DNA from: Candidatus Bathyarchaeota archaeon
Lineage (GTDB): Archaea > Thermoproteota > Bathyarchaeia > Bathyarchaeales > Bathycorpusculaceae
DNA length: 64,000 bases
NCBI GenBank assembly: GCA_963828195.1
Contig: CAWHDT010000005.1
Span: 608,001-672,000, forward strand
Direction: 5' to 3'
Notes under the pieces: generated by a model
What the model saw: only the letters and a program-made list of their open reading frames with translations
Databases searched by the model: none
Told to the model about the DNA's origin: nothing
Shown: positions 55,103 to 64,000 of the stretch, one piece after another
How the letters are laid out: every line of letters begins with the position of its first letter
Position numbering within the stretch: position 1 is the stretch's first letter
Made by a program: the position numbers and the translations under genes

Positions 55103-55332
55103 TGAGAGACCTTGCAGTTCAGTTGGGAATTGTATAGTTTCAATACCTTTATTATTGATATTTAAACTATTAATCCCTATCAACTTTATCTGCGTCCCTC
55201 TTAGTCGGATTATTCATTAATTAACTTTACTGAATGAATCTTAACCCTTGAATTTACTCGGTAATAACCCTAACCGCTTTAACCCACTTTTTTCCATAAG
55301 CATGGTTGACGATAGCACATACCCTTAAATTA

Positions 55333-55833
55333 TTATGAAATTTTGAAACCCCAAACATAATTAATAATATATGGATTGAAAGAAACTTGTTGCTCGGCAG
55401 TAATAATTTGAGTACTGTTACTTCCATAATCTTGAGTTATGTATATAGAGTTTGTAGAATTAAGAATATAGTAAGTGTCCATTAAATCCCAACCATCAGC
55501 AACATATACACGAACAGGAAAGGTTTGATTGTTTGTTATTATCAAACTTAGAACATTTGGTATTATCTGAATTAAAGCACTTCCATTTACAGGTGTAAGA
55601 GCATAATAAGGTGTACCATTATAGCAATTACAATATAAGAGTGTTAAGTTCTGAACAGTGAAAGGTAAGGGATAAAGTGTTACTCCATAAACTTCCTTTG
55701 CAGTTTGTGGAGTAATTGGGGTGTTTGCTGTGATTCTGATTATTGAATTATGATTTAAAGTAACTGAAATACCTGCTATTGTACTTGCAACTATAAGAAT
55801 TATCAAGATTGATATAACTATTTTTTTATTCAA
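55333..55833 (-). CDS. Hypothetical secreted or membrane-anchored protein (element cargo)
   Basis: MNKK + hydrophobic helix; N/T/Y rich. Confidence 0.6.
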   Translation of the reverse strand: MNKKIVISILIILIVASTIAGISVTLNHNSIIRITANTPITPQTAKEVYGVTLYPLPFTVQNLTLLYCNCYNGTPYYALTPVNGSALIQIIPNVLSLIITNNQTFPVRVYVADGWDLMDTYYILNSTNSIYITQDYGSNSTQIITAEQQVSFNPYIINYVWGFKIS

Positions 55834-55983
55834 TTCTATCTCTAATATTCCAATTTACGCTTTTCAGATTTAAAACTTATCATCAATGAAAAATAGCAGT
55901 GCTACCGAGAACAAAAATACTCTCTAATAGCGGTTAGGATAACGCTAAATATGCAGCCTAACAAACTATGTTTTGGTGAGAAT

Positions 55984-56205
55984 ATGAACAAGATAGTATT
56001 AACAGAAAAAAGTAAGGGTTTTGTTATAGATAAACAAGAATGCCTTAATTGTAAAGCTGAATTCTTTTTTAAAATTAAAGACAATGCACTAATCGAGGCG
56101 AAGGGGTATGCAAAAAAGAAATCTGACAAAATTATTAGCTGTAAAATTTGTAATTCGGAATATAGTTTTGAAGTTAAAGGGTTTTCTGGTCGTGTTGGTC
56201 TCTAA
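55984..56205 (+). CDS. Small zinc-finger protein
   Basis: CLNC...CKIC. Confidence 0.55.
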   Translation: MNKIVLTEKSKGFVIDKQECLNCKAEFFFKIKDNALIEAKGYAKKKSDKIISCKICNSEYSFEVKGFSGRVGL

Positions 56206-57677
56206 CTCCTTGAAAATAATCCTTTTTTATTTTGGTTAAGACGATTAGTGATAACAAAATTTCTATTGATAATAGGATGAATAGTGTTAGACTGCTTACC
56301 GAAATTACTCCAAGTTTCACCAGTGTTCATGTCATGAATAACTATTCTTCCACCTGTCGCTGGTTTAATAGGAAATTGCTGTTCATCCCAGAAGTTTAGC
56401 AACAAAAGAGAATCGACTAAATCGTCGTAATGCGGATTGCCTTGTTTTTTATAAGACTTCATTTCTTGAATTAAATCGTCATATTCTGATGATATCTCTA
56501 ACCCTTGACTCTCTATTACATGGCTAAGTTGTCCTTGCATGACTTCTTTGTAATAGCGTGAATTGACAGAGAAAACTTTGCTCTTACCGTAAGCTTCCGA
56601 TATGAGGTCAGACCACATAATGGGCAGACTATCAACCTTAACAAGCTGTACTTTATAGGACTTTAGAAACTCTGCTATTTCTGCAACTGCACCGTTAATC
56701 TGTTCAAATCCCCATGTCTTACGGAAGAGAACTTTAAGCTTATACTTACCGTTTTTCTCCCCTATTGTTAAGGCTAATTTGTCTCGGTCAGTGTGTCCAG
56801 TTCCACCACCGTCTATTCCAGCCCATCTAATACCTCCTTCGCTTAGTACCTGTTCTCTAATAGCTTTGTTAATTTGCTCTGTGTCCCATAGTAACTTAAT
56901 GCTGCTCTCGGATATTTCCCCGAGTACATCCCTTTTCCACTCATCTTCCGTCATTATCGTTTTCTTATTGCTTAGTTCTTCTTGACTATGCCAATCACAG
57001 TCTATTTCGCTCCACTTGAAAAGAGTAAAATTGTATTTCTTTGGGTTTTTGAGTATCTCATTAAACTTAGAATATCGAGAACTCGGAGTGCCTAAGACTA
57101 CCAGCTTAATCTTTTTACCGCTAAGATTTCCGTAAGCTGTAGATAGTGTTTCAGAAGGCATTAATTCAGCCTCATCTAAAAAGAGAATGCTTGCACTTGC
57201 TCCCCGTATGCCTTTCTCGGAAGAGGATAATAGCTGTACCTTGCTACCGTTCTTTAAAGAGTAGCCGTCTTTAGGAATAATGTTAGCTACCCCTTCCCAA
57301 CTTACATACTGTCTAAGCTCTGGGTTACTGCTAAAGATGTCTGTTATGTGTTGATAAACGTAGTTCTCTTTAGCAGAGACTAAGCACACTTGAATCTTGT
57401 TTTTGAGTGTTAAGTAAATGGCTGCTACTGCACAGCAAAGGCTCTTTCCAGTCTGTCTTCCAGCACTGATAAGAACATTCGTTAGCTCTGGGTTTTCTAA
57501 TCCCTGTAAGACCTCTACTTGTTTAGCGGTAGGAATTAGCTCTGTAATCTTAGTAAAAAATTCTGTTATGCTGAGACTGAGAAGGCTATTAACTTCTTTA
57601 GTTATTGCTAAGTTACCTTCTTTAGCCTTCAATCGGTCTCGATATTTTTTCTGCTTCTCAGCGTTAGTCATAGGCAT
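56202..57677 (-). CDS. Phage-type terminase large subunit
   Basis: PTAKQ, SAGRQTGKS Walker A, IRG...LFLDEAE Walker B, LGTP, WAGIDGG...D and DDLVDSL RNase H-like acidic residues. Confidence 0.9.
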   Translation of the reverse strand: MPMTNAEKQKKYRDRLKAKEGNLAITKEVNSLLSLSITEFFTKITELIPTAKQVEVLQGLENPELTNVLISAGRQTGKSLCCAVAAIYLTLKNKIQVCLVSAKENYVYQHITDIFSSNPELRQYVSWEGVANIIPKDGYSLKNGSKVQLLSSSEKGIRGASASILFLDEAELMPSETLSTAYGNLSGKKIKLVVLGTPSSRYSKFNEILKNPKKYNFTLFKWSEIDCDWHSQEELSNKKTIMTEDEWKRDVLGEISESSIKLLWDTEQINKAIREQVLSEGGIRWAGIDGGGTGHTDRDKLALTIGEKNGKYKLKVLFRKTWGFEQINGAVAEIAEFLKSYKVQLVKVDSLPIMWSDLISEAYGKSKVFSVNSRYYKEVMQGQLSHVIESQGLEISSEYDDLIQEMKSYKKQGNPHYDDLVDSLLLLNFWDEQQFPIKPATGGRIVIHDMNTGETWSNFGKQSNTIHPIINRNFVITNRLNQNKKGLFSRS

Positions 57678-57693
57678 TAAAGAATAACCTTCT

Positions 57694-57837
57694 TTATTTC
57701 TTGGATTCTGGGTTTGGTTGTGGTTGATTTAAAAGATTCCCATCTGCATAGAGTTTCTTGTAGAACTCAAGGTTCTTTTTACTTAATCCAATTTGGGTTA
57801 GAATCTCTTCCTTGACTTCTTCGCTGCTTTTGGTCAT
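57694..57837 (-). CDS. 47-aa hypothetical protein (not in ORF track)
   Basis: MTKSSEEVKEEILTQIGLSKKNLEFYKKLYADGNLLNQPQPNPESKK; ATGA overlap with upstream gene. Confidence 0.5.
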   Translation of the reverse strand: MTKSSEEVKEEILTQIGLSKKNLEFYKKLYADGNLLNQPQPNPESKK

Positions 57838-58508
57838 TTAAAAATTCCCTTTCTCTTAGTCTTAGCTTCCTTAGATGCATCCGCCCGTAACTGTTCTTCT
57901 GCATCATGTTTCGCTTTCTGTTCTGCCTCGTATATGCCTTTAGGAATCCATTGCCCTGTGTCTTCTCGTCTAACAAAACCAAAACCAGTCATTCCAAAAT
58001 CGTCTGGATATTTCTTCTTAGCTTCTGGTTGCTTTGGTTCTTGTAATGTAGCTGCATTTTTCACTGTTAGAAACTTAGCTATAATTGGGTCGTTAATTGG
58101 TGCAATCTTAAGCATGTAAACGTAATCGACTGTCTCGCCTTGAGTATCTGAGTTCATAGTTCCGACTTTTACTTTAGCTGTTGAGTAATCCTCTGACCAT
58201 TCTATATCCGAGCTTTTGTATATGCTGCCTTCGTAGAAATCAAAACGACCGTTCCCATTGTATCTTAGACTATACCGACCGTTTCCATCACTAAGACTAA
58301 TTGCAACCCCGACTGGTAATGTTGCTACTAAAAGCTCGCTGCGTGGCATTGATTGATACTCTGCTATCAGGTCGTTTAGTCGTTTTATAGCTGCCTTCTG
58401 TGCCTCTACCGAGGGATAGATAACACTCGGGTTTCCTACACTATTCTGTAGAGTTTCTATTTCTGTTAGAAGCTCTCGTTTCTTAATTTTTAATTCTTCT
58501 TGATTCAT
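57834..58508 (-). CDS. Hypothetical element protein
   Basis: 224-aa ORF co-oriented with the terminase gene. Confidence 0.7.
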   Translation of the reverse strand: MNQEELKIKKRELLTEIETLQNSVGNPSVIYPSVEAQKAAIKRLNDLIAEYQSMPRSELLVATLPVGVAISLSDGNGRYSLRYNGNGRFDFYEGSIYKSSDIEWSEDYSTAKVKVGTMNSDTQGETVDYVYMLKIAPINDPIIAKFLTVKNAATLQEPKQPEAKKKYPDDFGMTGFGFVRREDTGQWIPKGIYEAEQKAKHDAEEQLRADASKEAKTKRKGIFK

Positions 58509-58514
58509 TTTGAT

Positions 58515-58715
58515 TTATACCCCTTTTTTATTCTCACTATCATGAAATGAGAAATTGGAATTGTAAACACTCGCTCCCTGAGTAACTACTGGAAACTTTG
58601 CTAATCTCCTTAGTTCTCTGGGAGACTTTGTTTGGTTTGGACAATGCTTTCTTATAGAATAACCTCGCCTTTCCGTATCTTGTCTATACTGAAAACCTCT
58701 TAATTCCCTGCTCAA
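58515..58715 (-). CDS. Hypothetical small basic protein
   Basis: TTGA overlap with upstream ORF. Confidence 0.4.
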   Translation of the reverse strand: MSRELRGFQYRQDTERRGYSIRKHCPNQTKSPRELRRLAKFPVVTQGASVYNSNFSFHDSENKKGV

Positions 58716-58927
58716 TGTGACCTACACTCCCCAGAATCACAAAGTTTCTGATAATAGTATTTTATATCCAATTTACTATTAGCGATAGGAGAAGGTAGAC
58801 CGAACTTAGTTAAGAGAGCTATATCATTCTCTAACTTTGATATGGTCTTCATTCTTTCCCGTCTAACTGGACACGTAGAAGAACAACTTTTCTCTGGAAA
58901 GGCTCTTTTCTTAATTGAGTGGGTCAT
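58712..58927 (-). CDS. Small Cys-containing protein
   Basis: CSSTC...CDSGEC; ATGA overlap. Confidence 0.55.
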   Translation of the reverse strand: MTHSIKKRAFPEKSCSSTCPVRRERMKTISKLENDIALLTKFGLPSPIANSKLDIKYYYQKLCDSGECRSH

Positions 58928-59166
58928 TGTTCCCTACTCCAATCTCTCATTTCTGGATATACTTCGTTTCGTAACCAGACTAATCTATTAGAATTTCTTA
59001 TTTCGGTGTGCCATTGATAGGCTTCATTAATAGACTCTGCTTCCCCGTCAAATTCTAAATAACAGCCCATTGAACAGAAAAGGTCAGTCTCTAACTCTGG
59101 CTCGTAAAGTTTACCACATTGAACACATTTCCGTTTAATTACGGCTAATGAGCCTAAGTTTGCCAT
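58924..59166 (-). CDS. Small zinc-finger protein (CxxC...FCSxxC)
   Basis: CVQCG...FCSMGC; TAATG overlap with upstream ORF. Confidence 0.65.
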   Translation of the reverse strand: MANLGSLAVIKRKCVQCGKLYEPELETDLFCSMGCYLEFDGEAESINEAYQWHTEIRNSNRLVWLRNEVYPEMRDWSREQ

Positions 59167-59330
59167 TAACAAAACTTCCCCTGAGTGCTCCGTTTTCTTG
59201 GGATAGGATGGTCTCTTTTACATCTATTACCGCAACATACTTTTTTAGGGTCATAAGTTTGGAAGATTGTATCGCACCGAATACACTTCTTTGTTAAAAT
59301 AATCGATGAAATAGGAGCTAAGATTTCCAT
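59166..59330 (-). CDS. 54-aa zinc-finger protein (not in ORF track)
   Basis: MEILAPISSIILTKKCIRCDTIFQTYDPKKVCCGNRC...; same Cys spacing as next gene. Confidence 0.6.
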   Translation of the reverse strand: MEILAPISSIILTKKCIRCDTIFQTYDPKKVCCGNRCKRDHPIPRKRSTQGKFC

Positions 59331-59332
59331 CA

Positions 59333-59515
59333 CTAAACACTTACTGCCTTGATTGCTGCCTTCTGTACTTTTGAAAGGTTAAGAAGCTTACAATTATCAG
59401 AAAGCATATTGTTTACTAAGTTATCTGGTAAAGTAACATTCATTTGAACTGGATGCTTGTTTCCACACTCGGGGCATACAGCATCAATAACAAAACTATG
59501 GGTCTTAGTTCCCAT
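59333..59515 (-). CDS. Small CPxCG zinc-ribbon protein
   Basis: CPECGNKH; TAATG overlap with upstream ORF. Confidence 0.6.
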   Translation of the reverse strand: MGTKTHSFVIDAVCPECGNKHPVQMNVTLPDNLVNNMLSDNCKLLNLSKVQKAAIKAVSV

Positions 59516-59640
59516 TAGACCACATCCCCTAACATTATTCTGCCACAATCGGCGCAGAGAAATCTTTGTTTCTTTCCCTGTCTGGTAATCTGCTTACCAG
59601 CTTTAACGATATGGCTACTGCCACATTGACATTTTTTCAT
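59515..59640 (-). CDS. 41-aa InsA-like zinc-ribbon protein (not in ORF track)
   Basis: MKKCQCGSSHIVKAGKQITRQGKKQRFLCADCGR. Confidence 0.7.
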   Translation of the reverse strand: MKKCQCGSSHIVKAGKQITRQGKKQRFLCADCGRIMLGDVV

Positions 59641-59755
59641 TGTAGGCTACCCCTAATATATTGATTGATAGAAAGATATATTAAAGCTTCATGGTACTTA
59701 ATTATACCCTAAACTTAATAGTTCTGTGGTCGTAGAAAAATTAGCTATTCAGTTA

Positions 59756-59816
59756 TCCCTTTTTGCATTTTTCATACCCTTAAAATATCTACATCTTGCT
59801 ATGCAAAAAAGGGAAC
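59756..59816. repeat. Hairpin repeat copy 1 (also a plausible terminator for the topo-A-like gene)
   Basis: TCCCTTTTTGCAT...ATGCAAAAAAGGGA; related copies at 62915 and 63387. Confidence 0.7.
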
Positions 59817-59826
59817 ATTCTTGTAA

Positions 59827-61287
59827 CTATGTCGATTCTTTTCTCTTTCTCGTTTGCTGTTCTCTTATCATTTTAGCTGTTTTTTCTTTTCCGAAAAAAA
59901 GGTACGAAGTGCGAGCATTATCATAATTTAAGCTCGGTTCTGAACCTTCTTTTAAAAGCATAAGCGTATCGCAGCTTGAGCACCGTTTAGGTCTACCGAT
60001 GTCTGTAGTCTGATATTCAAATTTCTCGTAGCAGTTGGAACAGTGACCATAACCAAAACCAAAATCAAGCCTCTTAACTAAACAATCAATAGTTATTTCT
60101 GGTACGAAACCAACATTTGCTTTATTACTGGTTTTGGCTTTTCTTTTAGATTCTTCACTTAGAATAAGAGTATTTAAGTCTTCCATAACCCTATTTAGAC
60201 CGATAGTGTAAAGGTCGGGGTTCTTTGTCTTCATATCTTCCATTTTCTTTCTAAACCGTTCCACTGCATCTTTACCGTAATAATATTCTATCGCCTTTCT
60301 GGTAATTTTTTCTGCTATTGCTAAAGTGTCTCGGGATATGAATAACGCATCTGCTTCGCATTTCACTGCACCGTATTTTTCTATAAAATCAGCATGCTTG
60401 AGTTTCTTGGTATACTTTAGTTCTGGATTATCTCTAAATTTGTTTACTTCCTTCATTAATTCAATGTCTTCGACTAATGGAAGATTGTATCTTTTTATAT
60501 CCTCTATGTTTAGACCAACTCGTTTAATTACTAATTTCTCTGGGTCATATCTCGTACTTGGTTTTATTTCCTCTAAGTATTCTTTGAAATTATCTGACAT
60601 CTGCCGACCAACAATATCGAAATCGTAAAAAAGTAGTAGTACGGGAGTGAGTTTATTCTCTTCGGCTTTCTGTGCCAACTTTGCTATGTGGTCTAATATT
60701 AACAGTGGCGCTCTTCCTTTAGTGCTTACGATTGGTATATGGTACTCTTGGCAAATAGGCGCTAATACTTCTTTAAGGTCTCCTTTTTCAACAGACATCA
60801 TAAGATAATACTTTTCGTCTTTCCAGAATCCAGTATTAGATTCAGCTATGTTATTCATTTTATCGGTAATGAGTTCTTGAATTTCCATAAGTCCTTCTGT
60901 TGGGTCTGTTTCTTCGATTATGCCTTTAAAATGTCGAGTCTCGTCTTGGTCTTCTTTAACAAAGTCCATAGGTAACAGGTTTGCTTTTCTACAAACTGCA
61001 ATAGCAGCACCACATTTTTTAAATTCTGCTTCTGTTTTAGCTATTTTTCCCTTAGATTCTAATAAATAACCCCAACCTCTAACATTACGCTTGATACCTG
61101 TTTCTGCATCAAAAGCCTTAAGGTCGTTAGCAAAGCGCCAATACCTTTCCCTATTATCGGGGTCACTAATGCTTCCTGTTGGAATATACCCTTTCAGTTC
61201 TTTAGGTTTTGTATAGACAGCATTGTATTCTTTCCCGAACATCTTAGTCGTAGCACTTTCAAACACTTTTTTGATAGCGTCATTCAT
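59827..61287 (-). CDS. Type IIB topoisomerase A-like (Spo11/Topo VI-A/Mini-A-like TOPRIM) protein
   Basis: VRGWGYLL (candidate catalytic Tyr), SVEKGDL, STKG, FYDFDIVG (DxD), KRVGLN.EDI.RYNLP, CEADAL; C-terminal Zn ribbon. Confidence 0.75.
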   Translation of the reverse strand: MNDAIKKVFESATTKMFGKEYNAVYTKPKELKGYIPTGSISDPDNRERYWRFANDLKAFDAETGIKRNVRGWGYLLESKGKIAKTEAEFKKCGAAIAVCRKANLLPMDFVKEDQDETRHFKGIIEETDPTEGLMEIQELITDKMNNIAESNTGFWKDEKYYLMMSVEKGDLKEVLAPICQEYHIPIVSTKGRAPLLILDHIAKLAQKAEENKLTPVLLLFYDFDIVGRQMSDNFKEYLEEIKPSTRYDPEKLVIKRVGLNIEDIKRYNLPLVEDIELMKEVNKFRDNPELKYTKKLKHADFIEKYGAVKCEADALFISRDTLAIAEKITRKAIEYYYGKDAVERFRKKMEDMKTKNPDLYTIGLNRVMEDLNTLILSEESKRKAKTSNKANVGFVPEITIDCLVKRLDFGFGYGHCSNCYEKFEYQTTDIGRPKRCSSCDTLMLLKEGSEPSLNYDNARTSYLFFGKEKTAKMIREQQTRKRKEST

Positions 61288-62621
61288 TGGAGAACACCTT
61301 TAGCGTAATCATCGTACTTTACTGCTGGACACATGAAATGATAGATAACAGTCATTGGCGCAGTAGAATACTTCTTTGTAGAAAGACGGGTTTCTATTGG
61401 ACAGCATTTTAAGAAGACTTGTTGGGGTGCTGACATGTGATTAACACATAGATATAGCTGTAAGCCTTTGTTGTCTTCTGGTCTAAGAATCTTAGCGATT
61501 TCAAGGGCAAAGGGATATTCTACGTGTGATAGGTCTTTACAATCTTTATGTTCTTCCATTGATACCCTACAATCATAAGCCACTCCAATATTGAGCGAAT
61601 ACCCGTTATCGCATAATGTCCAGCCATTCTTCTCGCATCGTTTTTCAAATGCTTCTTTACCAACGATACCCAACACTGATTTAACAGTGCGTGAGTCCTC
61701 AATGGGTTTAGTTAACACTTTCATATTTGCATAGAGTTTTTCTATTCCTTCTTTGGATACTTTTGTTAGTAAGGTGTCTGCACCGTTTTTATAAAGTGAG
61801 TCTTGTAAGAAGGGATAGGTAATTTCATGACTTTGAAAACCCCTGAACATTGATGTTATGAACCTTTTAAGGGTTAAATCTGGACATGAAGCTGCATAAT
61901 CCAAAAATAACTCTGTAAACTCTTCGAGCTTGTACCAGAGAGCACTCGTTTCTTGTATTGGGTCTTTTCCGTCTGTAATTCTGTCGTAGACCGTTTCTTT
62001 ACCCATAAACTCATAGGTAATCTTTTTTGTTGGATTAACTAAGGCTGTAGCTTCAATGCTTCTCTCTATTTCCTTAGTGTCTAAATAATTTTGAACTGGA
62101 AACTTTACGGATATTACCGTTCCCCTGTCTATCCTTTTTGAAATTTGGATACTCGGGGGATTCATTCTTACATTGTCATGTGATAACGTTATAGTAAACT
62201 TGGAAGCTCCCGATTCTATGATGATAGACGGTATAGGCAGATTCTTAAGTTCAGCCGATATGTAGGAAAACCCAAAGATGCACTTTAATGCGTTACCTAT
62301 TCGACCTCTGCTAAGGCGCATTAATCCCCTGTTGGAGCTTGCTTTGTTATCAAAATCAAATATTTGGTCTATGACCTTTGGGGTTAACTTTGTTTCCCCA
62401 TCATTGGTTACGGTTACGGTATAGAAGTCTTTATCGCTGGTAATTGATACTCTTACTTTAACGGAGCCTTTTACATCTAAACCGTTAGCTAACATTTCCC
62501 TTACAGCAAAGTTTATCGCATGGTCTAAATCTGTTCCCGTTCTCAATCGTAGCTGTTCAGGTTCTATAAAATCTAAACTTCTCGGCAGACCCTTACGGAC
62601 TTCATTTATTAAAGATGTCAT
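61284..62621 (-). CDS. GHKL ATPase resembling Topo VI/VIII B subunit (likely start 62621)
   Basis: VREMLANGLD N-box, VTNDG G1, SRGRIGNALK G2, RGTVI G3, ALVNP; ATGA-coupled to the A-like gene. Confidence 0.78.
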   Translation of the reverse strand: MTSLINEVRKGLPRSLDFIEPEQLRLRTGTDLDHAINFAVREMLANGLDVKGSVKVRVSITSDKDFYTVTVTNDGETKLTPKVIDQIFDFDNKASSNRGLMRLSRGRIGNALKCIFGFSYISAELKNLPIPSIIIESGASKFTITLSHDNVRMNPPSIQISKRIDRGTVISVKFPVQNYLDTKEIERSIEATALVNPTKKITYEFMGKETVYDRITDGKDPIQETSALWYKLEEFTELFLDYAASCPDLTLKRFITSMFRGFQSHEITYPFLQDSLYKNGADTLLTKVSKEGIEKLYANMKVLTKPIEDSRTVKSVLGIVGKEAFEKRCEKNGWTLCDNGYSLNIGVAYDCRVSMEEHKDCKDLSHVEYPFALEIAKILRPEDNKGLQLYLCVNHMSAPQQVFLKCCPIETRLSTKKYSTAPMTVIYHFMCPAVKYDDYAKGVLQ

Positions 62622-62626
62622 GCTTC

Positions 62627-62773
62627 TCACGATTTGTTTTCTTCGATTGTTGGGTTTAGCACTCTGCCACATTCTTGGCATAGATACCTCTGGATTTTAC
62701 CCTTACGTGTAGTTCTGAATCCGAGCTTCACGATATGGGTACTTCCACAGATACATTTAGCTGGTTTACTCAT
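62627..62773 (-). CDS. 48-aa InsA-like zinc-ribbon protein (not in ORF track)
   Basis: MSKPAKCICGSTHIVKLGFRTTRKGKIQRYLCQECGR; paralog of 59515..59640. Confidence 0.72.
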   Translation of the reverse strand: MSKPAKCICGSTHIVKLGFRTTRKGKIQRYLCQECGRVLNPTIEENKS

Positions 62774-62914
62774 TCTTCGTACTCTTCTACACTATAAATA
62801 GGTATATCTATAGATATAAGGATTATGGGTAATTAAGATATAATATATGGTCAAAGTGGTTCAAAATGAAATTCCCTATTATGCTTTAGTTCATGCTGTC
62901 AGCACCTTAACCTC

Positions 62915-62978
62915 TTCCCCTTTTTTGTATTTATTATACCTCTAAAAGATGTAGACCAGCCACTACAAAAAAGGGAAC
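62915..62978. repeat. Hairpin repeat copy 2
   Basis: TTCCCCTTTTTTGTA...TACAAAAAAGGGAA. Confidence 0.7.
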
Positions 62979-63386
62979 TTTCCCATTAGATTGGAAACAC
63001 CTGAAACACCTTACTTCTACAGGTAAACAAGCTAATCCAATAAGACATTAATTATCTATTAGTTTTTTAATTCTAACAGACAGAGAAACTCTATATCTAA
63101 TAATTTACTAAATTAAGAGACATAGAAACACCTTACTGGATGTTTATTGTCCAGCTATCTTACTACAGGTTGAGGTCGTTATTAGTTCTTAATATCCTGA
63201 AGCCTTGATGAAGGGGAACTAACCATTTAGCCACTTTATAACCGAAGTAACCTTACTGGTTCGGATAGACTTTTTTCCAATGCGATTCACCAATAAATAA
63301 ACAGCTAACGCATTGGGAGAATTAGCTGCCTACCTACTGATTACTAACCACTTTCTCGGGGAGCATAAAAAGTTTTATGGTCTTTG

Positions 63387-63456
63387 CCCTTTCTGCATTT
63401 TCTACGCTAAAAACATCTACATCGTAAACTTGATTGCCTAAGCAAAAAAGGGGAAC
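63387..63456. repeat. Hairpin repeat copy 3
   Basis: CCCTTTCTGC...GCAAAAAAGGGGAAC; loop shares AAAA.ATCTACATC with copy 1. Confidence 0.65.
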
Positions 63457-63893
63457 TTACCCATCTGATAATAAAGTGAGGTAGTTGTTTAATTTTATAT
63501 TTTTTATAGTGTGCAGTATTCCTTACTGCACTTGGCGTTTCAAGCATTAATGAAGCATATTTCTAAGTTCTCCGTGCTGACTCTTGATACTCCTAAATGC
63601 TAAGAGATTGAGTATTAGAATTAGATTAGATGTTTATTGATGCCTGAGTGGTGGCATGGAGAACCATAGTAAAAGACCATGCTTGGAGACTAATAGAAAG
63701 ACCGTACCCACAATAAGAGGAATGTTAGCCTTAGAAACTTGATAGTTTAACGTTAAAAACTGTACTTGTTTCTTTAATGTATTAGAGCAATAGCGGAGTG
63801 TAAACGAGCTGGCGCATAGCCCTATTGCATAGTACAATTACTAAAAGCATGGGAAAATAATGATTGTCGGTAACAGTTTAGTTACTTGAAAGG

Positions 63894-64000
63894 TTACTCT
63901 TCTTTCAGTATATCGTCTGCTTGTTTGTCTCTCTCTTCTTGGTCATGAATTATCTCTTCCAGTGTGTAATCTTTAGCTAACAATCCACGTTCTTTGAAAG
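63894..64000 (-). CDS. 3' end of a hypothetical gene entering from beyond the window
   Basis: Open frame ...FKERGLLAKDYTLEEIIHDQEERDKQADDILKEE-stop. Confidence 0.5.
   Translation of the reverse strand, partial: FKERGLLAKDYTLEEIIHDQEERDKQADDILKEE

Follow-up and report, generated by a model that had tools for sequence, protein, structure and literature searches.

A coupled pair of B-like and A-like genes on an archaeal integrative element probably encodes a two-subunit type IIB topoisomerase-family enzyme

Two adjoining genes on a roughly 10-kb integrative mobile element in a Candidatus Bathyarchaeota archaeon probably encode the two subunits of a single enzyme belonging to the type IIB topoisomerase family, a reading to which we give a probability of roughly 0.7. 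They lie in the window analyzed here, a stretch of 64,000 nucleotides (assembly GCA_963828195.1, contig CAWHDT010000005.1, positions 608,001 to 672,000). Both halves are homologous to type IIB topoisomerase subunits, the two genes remain adjacent or fused among their relatives, and they are carried by a mobile element. Judged from sequence comparison, the pair represents a B+A subfamily, new among type IIB topoisomerase-like enzymes, and the putative "Mini-B" asked about by Takahashi et al. (2020). The available text of that paper gives three alternatives: a Mini-A alone, a Mini-A left after loss of B, or an undiscovered, non-canonical "Mini-B". In the available text of later reviews and virus papers, up to 2026, Mini-A is still a stand-alone A subunit of unknown function, and in the literature searched we found neither a description of an ATPase partner for Mini-A nor a publication on the B+A family of the window. 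The locus and its relatives bear on this question, with a B partner coupled or fused to an A protein of the Mini-A superclade.

The A-like gene (59827..61287, minus strand) encodes 486 aa comprising a predicted N-terminal docking helix, a 5Y-CAP/winged helix with the tyrosine, a Toprim domain, a zinc ribbon and a basic C-terminal helix, and the B-like gene (61284..62681, minus strand) encodes 465 aa comprising a GHKL ATPase, an H2TH-like region and a transducer. Both open reading frames are genuine, and the ATGA coupling of the ATPase gene to the Tyr-motif gene, described in a first-pass annotation made from the sequence alone, was read directly in the window as an overlap of the B stop with the A start. 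That annotation had ended B at 62621, which is the internal Met21; the full frame runs to 62681. The genes are parted directly behind YGKS, a conserved motif of the transducer.

The B-like protein matches the NCBIfam Topo VI-B family over residues 55-347 (E 2.2e-10; 39.7 bits against a cut-off of 274) and Pfam HATPase_c at 21.7 bits, under the cut-off of 26.4. When its family was compared with Topo VI-B by hhalign, the alignment reached a probability of 98.5 (E 3.5e-15) over 375 columns and spanned the GHKL, H2TH and transducer regions, and a Foldseek search with the structural model returned Topo VI-B for all of the top 15 PDB matches (E 2e-15 to 4e-12). On these two comparisons the protein has the GHKL, H2TH and transducer of a type IIB B module. 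A phmmer search of B against PDB sequences gave chance-level matches only. Two observations on this subunit count against the preferred reading: the pLDDT of the model is only 58, and the B profile finds among PDB sequences only weak matches to the N-terminal regions of MutL, MLH1 and MORC, with none to Topo VI-B.

Most of the GHKL residue set is present in B. The N box E62-M-L-A-N66-G-L-D69 (62475..62498, minus strand) aligns with the RELVENSLD motif of Topo VI-B, and E62 and N66 are conserved in 79/79 aligned metagenome relatives. The G2 box S124-R-G-R-I-G-N-A-L-K133 (62283..62312, minus strand), of the GxxGxA type with G126, G129 and A131, aligns with the RGTFGLGGK motif and reads SRGYLGNALK in 74 of 80 relatives. 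The transducer lysine K461 (61299..61301, minus strand) aligns with a Lys that is invariant in the Topo VI-B motif GKE, is Lys in all 75 aligned relatives and would be the switch lysine. The first-pass claim that all Bergerat boxes are present thus stands for the N and G2 boxes but not for the G1 box, which reads N93-D94-G95 (62397..62405, minus strand) where the family has D-N-G: position 93 is Asn in the window copy and Asp in 79/79 aligned metagenome relatives (1 of the 80 rows is gapped), with Asp94 adjoining. This Asn at the G1-box Asp is a further observation that counts against the preferred reading.

The A-like protein matches phrog_6247, 'DNA topoisomerase' (E 3.1e-44), and a Pfam search of it matched no family; together with the low NCBIfam score of B, this agrees with the strong divergence from cellular Topo VI annotated earlier. 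Its AF2 model has a pLDDT of 90.5, and the top 6 PDB matches of the model in Foldseek are Topo VI-A (E 8e-4 to 1e-2), with 0 matches in BFVD at E <= 0.001. Sequence links to Topo VI-A are weak and also count against the preferred reading: phmmer of A against PDB sequences gave chance-level matches only, the A profile found no relevant match there, and hhalign of the A family with Topo VI-A gave a probability of 5.8 (E 0.0065) with the Tyr out of register. The register of the Tyr and Toprim motifs was taken from an L-INS-i alignment with Mini-A, Topo VIII and Topo VI-A. In this alignment the candidate catalytic tyrosine, in R70-G-W-G-Y74 (61066..61080, minus strand), aligns with the catalytic Tyr motifs RQLYY of Mini-A, RQLFY of Topo VIII and R..YY of Topo VI-A, and the Toprim metal site, E167 (in VEKGD) and D222-F-D224-I-V-G (60616..60789, minus strand), lines up with the EK and DxDPxG motifs of Topo VI-A. 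In an alignment of 86 relatives 9 columns are invariant, and these include Y74, E167, D222 and D224. Through these residues, their register and the Foldseek matches, A has the 5Y-CAP Tyr and the Toprim E and DxD of a type IIB A module. The C-terminal zinc ribbon, C416xxC419...C436xxC439 (59971..60042, minus strand), consists of two CxxC pairs and is modelled with beta strands over residues 400-447; nearly all A proteins of the zinc-ribbon clade have two such pairs about 20 residues apart. The Tyr motif, the Toprim residues and the extra zinc ribbon were thus all located in A as first described.

Asn93 favors another explanation, decidedly unlikely in our judgment, in which the window's copy of the pair is decaying or ATPase-dead and its carrier is a small or defective element. 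The A protein of the window fits this as well, since 10 of 46 highly conserved columns are changed in it and it is the most deviant of the 86 sequences, an observation that also weighs against the preferred reading. However, it is changed at 0 of the 9 invariant columns, and B retains E62, N66, the G2 box and K461. Furthermore, both frames are open and of full length with the ATGA coupling intact, Asp94 could substitute for the residue beside it, and a second protein (P0001), 97% identical to the window B by BLASTP and 94% in the alignment, has the identical NDG.

The two genes are kept together across their relatives. B followed directly by A, or fused to it, was found in 70/70 informative metagenome loci, where the genes adjoin in 60 and are fused in 10, from a set of 80 in which the remaining 10 were cut by a contig end or broken, and in 7/7 informative genome loci, two of which (L019 and L021) are identical. 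In all, each of the 77 informative loci among 88 examined has B joined, by coupling or by fusion, to an A protein from the Mini-A superclade. The fused relatives are single proteins of about 900 aa, of the Rosetta-stone kind, in which the stretch equivalent to A residues 1-17 comes after the YGKS motif. At least 323 B relatives were found in metagenome contigs; the search counts of 2520, 881 and 228 include relatives of both B and A, because the profile of the 1.84-billion-protein search ended up spanning both halves (886 positions).

A model of the B-A complex reached an ipSAE of 0.74, against 0.00 for the best of 3 controls. This mark was reached by 58/80 solved complexes and by 2/110 mismatched pairs, counts that hold only roughly because own alignments were used. 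At least 27% of contacts recur between runs, with a partner pLDDT of at least 72. In the modelled interface, residues 1-17 of A (61237..61287, minus strand), a predicted docking helix, pack on the transducer sheet of B against residues 359-370, 391-397, 423-433, 438 and 451. A short A helix on the B transducer is unlike the A-B interface of Topo VI given in the available text of Takahashi et al. (2020).

Phylogenies were built as quick trees and as a separate LG+F+G4 run with ultrafast bootstraps. They place the A protein within the Mini-A superclade and outside both Topo VIII and Topo VI as sampled, with separating branches supported at 97-100. The branch between Topo VIII plus Topo VI and the WELDAL Mini-A plus RGW group has a support of 99.6/100 and 97 (100 in the quick tree), so that the A half does not nest within the Topo VIII sampled, a set of 8 sequences that leaves out three of the four archaeal Topo VIII named by Takahashi et al. 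Topo VI-A and Topo VI-B form their own clades (support 100), and the window pair falls in neither. Membership in Topo VI was therefore rejected, and the host's own Topo VI is encoded at a separate locus elsewhere in the genome. With this cellular A2B2 enzyme the pair shares both subunit folds, the motif positions and the order of B then A, whereas sequence similarity is very low.

The common, supported clade of the window A holds canonical phage Mini-A proteins (of Pseudomonas phage JG054, Xylella phage Salvo and others) and a protein annotated 'Topo mini-A' on the Asgard element 10H_0. Window A and Mini-A have in common the Arg/Tyr spacing, the Toprim E and DxDxxG, and carriage by mobile elements. 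They differ in that Mini-A is a stand-alone A of about 300-340 aa, whereas the window A is 486 aa long with a B partner directly upstream, and in that the C-terminal zinc ribbon and the N-terminal docking helix are features of the window A and not of Mini-A. The signatures of Mini-A are RQLYY and xWELDAL, and those of the window's family RGWxY and K[CV]ExNAL; window A itself has RGWGY and KCEADAL, where 6 named phage Mini-A have RQ.YY and xWELDAL. The window A was not found on viral contigs at comparable identity.

The B half lies in a mobile-element clade of B domains together with the N-terminal halves of Topo VIII, apart from Topo VI-B. Other features in common with Topo VIII are the GxxGxA-type G2 box known in one Topo VIII group and the mobile-element-borne B-plus-A architecture, fused or split. 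The B clade speaks for a further reading, that the pair is a plain split Topo VIII, as do a weak match of B to the Topo VIII of H. jeotgali (E 4e-3; 21% identity across 89% of the query), the similarity in pattern of KCEADAL to the RVELNAM box of Topo VIII, and the position of the split, which falls in the transducer like that of the two-subunit Topo VIII described in the available text of Takahashi et al. (2020). We nevertheless regard this reading as very improbable. The A halves of the sampled Topo VIII do not cluster with the window A, by the branches given above, and the zinc ribbon is an extra feature of the latter. An Arg at Tyr+3 was found in the four named Topo VIII and three further loci, with an RVELNAM-type box in 6/7; the box of H. 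jeotgali Topo VIII is RVEINAF in the alignment and was missed by the regular expression, and the split L022 protein has RVELNAM but lacks the Arg at Tyr+3. Window A lacks RVELNAM, RQL[FY]Y and the Arg at Tyr+3 (the Topo VIII signature RQL[FY]Y..R, as given in the available text) and has YLLE and KCEADAL.

The pair lies in an integrated island of about 10 kb and about 37% G+C, delimited by the G+C profile at 55131..64000 and continuing to about 65131 in window-equivalent coordinates. The insertion is precisely bounded: two genomes of the same genus have the empty site, a 10-base stretch is common to both junctions, and the island was not found in the 40 relatives examined. At the end of the window lies the 3' part of the island's tyrosine integrase gene (63894..64000, minus strand; 382 aa, the remainder beyond the window; Pfam Phage_integrase, E 4.9e-6), whose family is present in 22 other B-A loci. 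A terminase-large-subunit-like gene (56202..57677, minus strand) scores 28.4 bits with Pfam Terminase_6N (cut-off 22) and E 3.3e-25 with phrog_2; no homologue of it was found in 86 related B-A loci, nor in IMG/VR by near-exact peptide patterns. Family searches of part of the island ORFs named no capsid or portal gene, and the ESM Atlas yielded nothing for a 224-aa island protein. The small size of the island and a terminase-like gene without recognized capsid genes are in line with a defective element, but its precise borders argue against decay of the pair. A full provirus was rejected because these family searches named no capsid or portal gene and the insertion is a precise 10 kb.

The element had been called virus-like, which was confirmed only in part: it has the terminase-like gene and the integrase, and no capsid or portal gene was named among the ORFs searched. 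The proposal of a possibly new two-subunit viral type IIB topoisomerase is supported as to a two-subunit type IIB-like pair that is neither sampled Topo VIII nor Topo VI, but not as to "viral". B relatives were found neither in 50,697 phage records nor in IMG/VR, and B is absent within 6 kb on each side in 67/67 viral contigs carrying a Mini-A-type gene. A candidate B upstream of a Mini-A-like gene in a Cellulophaga phage was rejected, the neighbor not being B-like (hhalign E 0.81). The viral label is unsupported because the recurrent neighbors of the pair are integrases and primase-helicases: tyrosine integrases, D5-like primase-helicases and a Prim-Pol protein. The D5-like helicase, the Prim-Pol protein and an 859-aa protein lie directly upstream and co-directional in several loci, and the named H. 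jeotgali Topo VIII also adjoins a P4-family primase.

These neighbors also bear on whether the pair might serve in defense or exclusion, as a nuclease of the JetD or OLD kind that attacks competing elements. Toprim nucleases are known in defense systems, and one canonical phage Mini-A has a weak, below-cut-off match (E 2.4e-4) to DUF2399, which we take to be the C-terminal domain of JetD. But integrases and replication proteins are the recurrent company of the pair, PADLOC gave no match for A or B, and, as first noted, JetABC-like partners were not seen, the neighbor proteins searched with Pfam containing no SMC-type family. JetD or another defense nuclease was rejected on the PADLOC result, and we consider such a role extremely unlikely.

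In the preferred reading of one type IIB enzyme, B would supply the GHKL ATPase, the H2TH-like region and the transducer, and A would supply the Tyr-bearing 5Y-CAP, the Toprim metal site and the zinc ribbon, while helix 1 of A is predicted to return to the transducer sheet of B and dock there. [quoted passage not shown] Stoichiometry, ATP dependence, strand passage and biological role are all what we infer for such an enzyme; it would most likely serve to replicate or unlink the element's circular form.

A different mechanism, which we hold to be unlikely, is that of an ATP-regulated enzyme that breaks or nicks DNA without strand passage, acting as replication initiator of a circular element or as a Spo11-like maker of double-strand breaks. 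In its favor, no Rep, primase or helicase was recognized among the island proteins searched, and the pair is therefore the only recognized enzyme of DNA-replication type among them. Stand-alone Topo mini-A has been proposed as a replication initiator in the available text of Medvedeva et al. (bioRxiv 10.1101/2021.07.29.453957). In vitro activities of the tested Topo VIII enzymes were faint or cleavage-only, in the available text of Takahashi et al. (2020) and Garnier et al. (2021), which counts against the preferred reading, and one of them produced double-strand breaks only (Takahashi et al., 2020). However, the family keeps a full GHKL-transducer module, with the catalytic Glu, the Mg-binding Asn, the G2 box and the transducer Lys, which strand passage requires and which would be superfluous to a simple nickase, and many relatives adjoin a primase-helicase of their own.

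The trees also suggest an order of events. B-fused members occur in both Mini-A branches, RGWxY and WELDAL, and the zinc-ribbon-clade B halves are sister to the WELDAL-fusion B halves, as the A halves likewise are to each other. Because both branches hold B-fused members and the B and A sister relations agree, we tentatively suggest, as a possibility somewhat short of even odds, that the Mini-A lineage began with B, that stand-alone viral Mini-As are reduced forms that lost the ATPase, and that B-A may be the sole replication enzyme, initiator and decatenase, of small integrative archaeal elements. If true, this would answer the alternative of Takahashi et al. of a Mini-B yet to be discovered. 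The locus and its relatives offer a concrete, expressible B+A pair, with natural single-chain forms, for biochemistry and cryo-EM. They also provide a course of type IIB topoisomerase evolution that can be tested, and a candidate for the replication enzyme of integrative elements of a class that is widespread in Bathyarchaeia.

A small ORF upstream of B (62627..62773, minus strand, from the ORF list) encodes a 48-aa CxxC protein, and the Met21 codon of B, an alternative start, lies directly past its stop. The protein resembles the N-terminal zinc ribbon of integrases that lie downstream of the pair in relatives.

The gene pair lies on the minus strand, where the B-like GHKL ATPase/transducer subunit (B; 61284..62681, 465 aa) and the A-like subunit (A; 59827..61287, 486 aa) overlap in the sequence ...CAATGAATG..., whose ATGA serves B as stop and A as start. 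Position 62621, taken by the first-pass annotation as the end of the pair, is Met21 of B. As this residue directly follows the end of a 48-aa CxxC ORF in the ORF list (62627..62773, minus strand), both the 465-aa start and the Met21 start of B are possible. The features claimed for A are all found in it: the candidate tyrosine motif (R70-G-W-G-Y74), the Toprim glutamate and DxD (V-E167-K-G-D and D222-F-D224-I-V-G) and the C-terminal zinc ribbon (C416xxC419...C436xxC439). B had been credited with all Bergerat boxes; the N box (E62-MLA-N66-GL-D69) and the G2 box (G126-RI-G129-N-A131) are present, but the G1 box reads N93-D94-G95. Except for this box and a "viral" label, the earlier observation of a split type IIB topoisomerase-like pair holds.

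In Pfam, B matched HATPase_c alone, at 21.7 bits and under the 26.4-bit threshold, and the NCBIfam Topo VI-B model covered residues 55-347 (E 2.2e-10) with a score far below its cut-off; no Topo VI-B was found among PDB sequences by phmmer or hmmsearch with B. When an alignment of 13 family members was compared with 12 Topo VI-B sequences by hhalign, 375 columns were aligned with a probability of 98.5 (E 3.5e-15), and register was kept at the N, G1 and G2 boxes, in the H2TH region and at the transducer end. The AF2 model of B, built from six sequences, was mediocre (pLDDT 58); its 15 best PDB matches were Topo VI-B chains only (E 2e-15 to 4e-12), and MutL, MLH1 and type IIA ATPase domains ranked next.

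No family in Pfam or NCBIfam matched A. Residues 56-355 were matched by phrog_6247, "DNA topoisomerase" (E 3.1e-44), and tblastn found Cellulophaga and Chryseobacterium phage proteins at 33% identity and proteins of Pseudomonas, Xylella, Achromobacter, Roseobacter and other phages at 21-25%, several of these phage proteins being annotated "DNA topoisomerase". The best six PDB matches of the AF2 model of A (86 sequences, pLDDT 90.5) were Topo VI-A chains, with modest E values of 7.7e-4 to 9.5e-3 and probabilities of 0.99-1.00, and the matches after these had probabilities of at most 0.35. Comparison of the A family with Topo VI-A by hhalign gave a weak match (probability 5.8), in which the Toprim was in register but not the tyrosine. 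In an L-INS-i alignment of 94 A domains, R70/Y74, E167, D222/D224 and a K-C-E-A-D-A-L box align with Mini-A, Topo VIII and Topo VI-A; the counterpart of R70/Y74...K-C-E-A-D-A-L reads RQLYY...WELDAL in phage Mini-A, RQL[FY]Y..R...RVELNAM in the named Topo VIII and R..YY...K.E.EA. in Topo VI-A.

For phylogenetic placement, named references were drawn from plasmid and phage records, with P. polymyxa pPPM1a, P. amygdali pMPPla107, pBASL58 and H. jeotgali plasmid 5 for Topo VIII and six phages for Mini-A, one of them a Nipunavirus related to NP1, the phage that Takahashi used; references for both Topo VI subunits came from the host, its phylum and Bathyarchaeia MAGs. The trees are read as unrooted. 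A-domain trees of 94 rows (quick) and 47 rows (LG+F+G4, ultrafast bootstraps) gave a support of 100 to Topo VI-A, of 96 to Topo VIII (78/92 in the second tree) and of 97 to a Mini-A superclade, with 99.6/100 on the separating branch. Nesting of the pair within split Topo VIII would have spoken against the reading of the first-pass annotation; in these trees it fell outside the Topo VIII sampled. The superclade consists of a WELDAL branch, in which six fused proteins (715-815 aa) join the phage Mini-A, and an RGWxY branch, with many proteins of ~340 aa (among them the Cellulophaga and Chryseobacterium phage proteins and the "Topo mini-A" of Asgard element 10H_0) and several fusions without zinc ribbon. 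Inside the RGWxY branch the zinc-ribbon proteins, split or fused and including the window's A, form a clade with a support of 100. In a quick B-domain tree of 55 rows, every mobile-element B domain stood apart from Topo VI-B (100), and B of the zinc-ribbon clade (99) was sister to B of the WELDAL fusions (97), mirroring the A tree.

The six WELDAL-branch fusions (P0106, P0139, P0158, P0160, P0172 and P0182) come from metagenomes and have an N-terminal GHKL-transducer; all carry the canonical Mini-A tyrosine signature RQIFY and five WELDAL (the pattern missed P0158), and they are a second, independent group of Mini-A with B. In the RGWxY fusions that lack a zinc ribbon (P0093, P0137, P0144, P0095 and L027), the B halves cluster with Topo VIII B halves (100, 98), unlike the A halves, which lie in the Mini-A superclade. 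These placements suggest module exchange between the Topo VIII and Mini-A lineages or a long-branch artefact, long branches having been flagged by the tool.

The association of B with A is recurrent. Among the hits of the homologue searches were proteins of 557-819 aa whose sequence starts within the B domain and continues into A, and HMMER against 1.84 billion representatives gave full-length B-A fusions of 887-985 aa (P0054-57, P0059 and P0063). The fusions locate the split point: B stops 2-3 residues past a conserved WLNYGKS.L.E motif, and the window's A begins with the helix that comes next in the fused chains. Among GTDB genomes, B relatives (32-37% identity) occur at eight Bathyarchaeia loci, five with A directly downstream and ends overlapping (two are identical copies, and one A is truncated at a contig end), one fused, one a fusion with a single interruption and one with the contig end inside B; adjacency or fusion is thus found in 7/7 informative loci. 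At least 323 stretches of metagenome contigs encode a B relative, and in the best 80 of these A is adjacent in 60 and fused in 10, nine end at the contig edge and one is broken there, giving 70/70 informative loci, near-identical ones included.

Prediction of the B+A complex scored 0.74 (runs of 0.72, 0.74 and 0.75), and the best of three controls 0.00; this mark was attained by 58 of 80 solved complexes versus 2 of 110 mismatched pairs, counts that apply only approximately here as own alignments were supplied. Contact agreement between runs was at least 27% and partner pLDDT at least 72, and the confident predicted contacts join A 1-17 with B 359-370, 391-397, 423-433, 438 and 451. The prediction supports binding of B to A; a passing score is expected for a split gene, and may partly stem from likeness to solved Topo VI. 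The predicted interface differs from the Topo VI one that Takahashi's text describes.

Takahashi et al. (2020, PMC7671362) found no Mini-B near Mini-A genes and speak of a non-canonical B that "is yet to be discovered". Medvedeva et al. (bioRxiv 10.1101/2021.07.29.453957) describe Topo mini-A as a stand-alone protein that may initiate replication, and mention a clade with Methanosarcina and Thaumarchaeota homologues. The stand-alone view of Mini-A is repeated in reviews and later papers, and our literature searches found a B partner of Mini-A nowhere described. The pair belongs to a B+A subfamily of type IIB topoisomerase-like enzymes that is abundant and, in the literature searched, undescribed; its A half is of the Mini-A kind. 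As to activity, stoichiometry and role, we infer that the enzyme most likely performs ATP-driven DNA cleavage or strand passage for replication or unlinking of integrative elements.

B position 93, which we take to be the GHKL Asp contacting adenine, is Asp in 79/79 aligned relatives and Asn in the window's B, with Asp at 94; E62, N66, the G2 box and K461 are retained. A is off consensus at 10 of 46 columns of at least 90% conservation (G103N, F175L, W192R, R198L, I230M, W271L, I272V, L275I, Y301F and N313D), the highest count among 86 sequences, and these departures touch none of the nine columns invariant in that alignment (Y74, K84, E167, G191, D222, D224, G227, K309 and E311). From these residues, this copy may be ATP-blind, or simply fast-evolving.

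The stretch around the pair has a G+C content of ~37% versus ~45% in the chromosome. Two same-genus genomes have the flanking formyltransferase and ApbE-like/HcyBio pair and lack the island; alignment places its junctions at 55131-55140 and, past the window end, at window-equivalent 65122-65131, with 10 bases in common, the insertion site being ~30 bp upstream of the formyltransferase start. In these empty-site genomes (G003, locus L029; G016, locus L030) ~1.6 kb of extra DNA, missing from the window's genome, adjoins the attachment site; set against L002:11176-11255, it amounts to another indel at this intergenic position. B was not found in the 40 relatives searched, 24 of the same genus. 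The host is probably a Bathyarchaeon, its Topo VI being closest to those of Bathyarchaeia MAGs. Its own Topo VI-B (L011:1507-3132) has in the H2TH region a ~30-residue insertion with a CPKC motif, missing from the consensus of the other aligned Topo VI-B.

Besides B and A, the genes of the ~10-kb island code for a tyrosine integrase, the 48-aa CxxC protein, four further small CxxC proteins, a terminase-large-subunit-like protein (56202-57677), and 224-aa (57834-58508) and 166-aa proteins that matched no family. No capsid, portal or replication gene was recognised in addition to the terminase-like one; a satellite-like element is one possible reading of the island, a small virus that escaped recognition another. 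Neighbours recurring across a set of 87 B-A loci are members of the window integrase's family (23 loci), a zinc-ribbon integrase, often in overlap with the end of A (11), a D5-like SF3 primase-helicase (7), an 859-aa protein (6) and a 757-aa Prim-Pol protein (5), the last three often directly upstream of the pair in the same direction; the window's terminase and other island genes had no homologue across the B-A loci compared. No B relative was found in phage records or IMG/VR, and in 67/67 IMG/VR loci with a Mini-A-type gene the ORF spans 224-414 aa, apart from one of 695 aa that has an insertion, and the 6 kb fetched per side contain no B. The "viral" label thus finds no support: going by this absence and by the integrases and primase-helicases nearby, the B-A family is characteristic of integrative, plasmid-like elements rather than of viruses recognised as such.

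D5/P4-type primase-helicases adjoin type IIB genes in a Bathyarchaeia element (L017:2872-6023), a Magnetococcales Topo VIII locus (L023:491-2110) and H. jeotgali plasmid 5 (L007:7144-8934), a linkage that recurs across domains. In the 695-aa viral ORF (L084:5989-8073) the homologous parts are ~350 residues apart, possibly through an intein or other insertion. Finally, 7-deazaguanine (preQ0) synthesis genes (folE, queE, QueF) adjoin RGWxY-type Mini-A-like genes in Cellulophaga phage phi38:2 (L004:2790-8800) and Chryseobacterium phage MA9V-3 (L005:3965-8190), which suggests that Mini-A is tied to modified-DNA replication modules.
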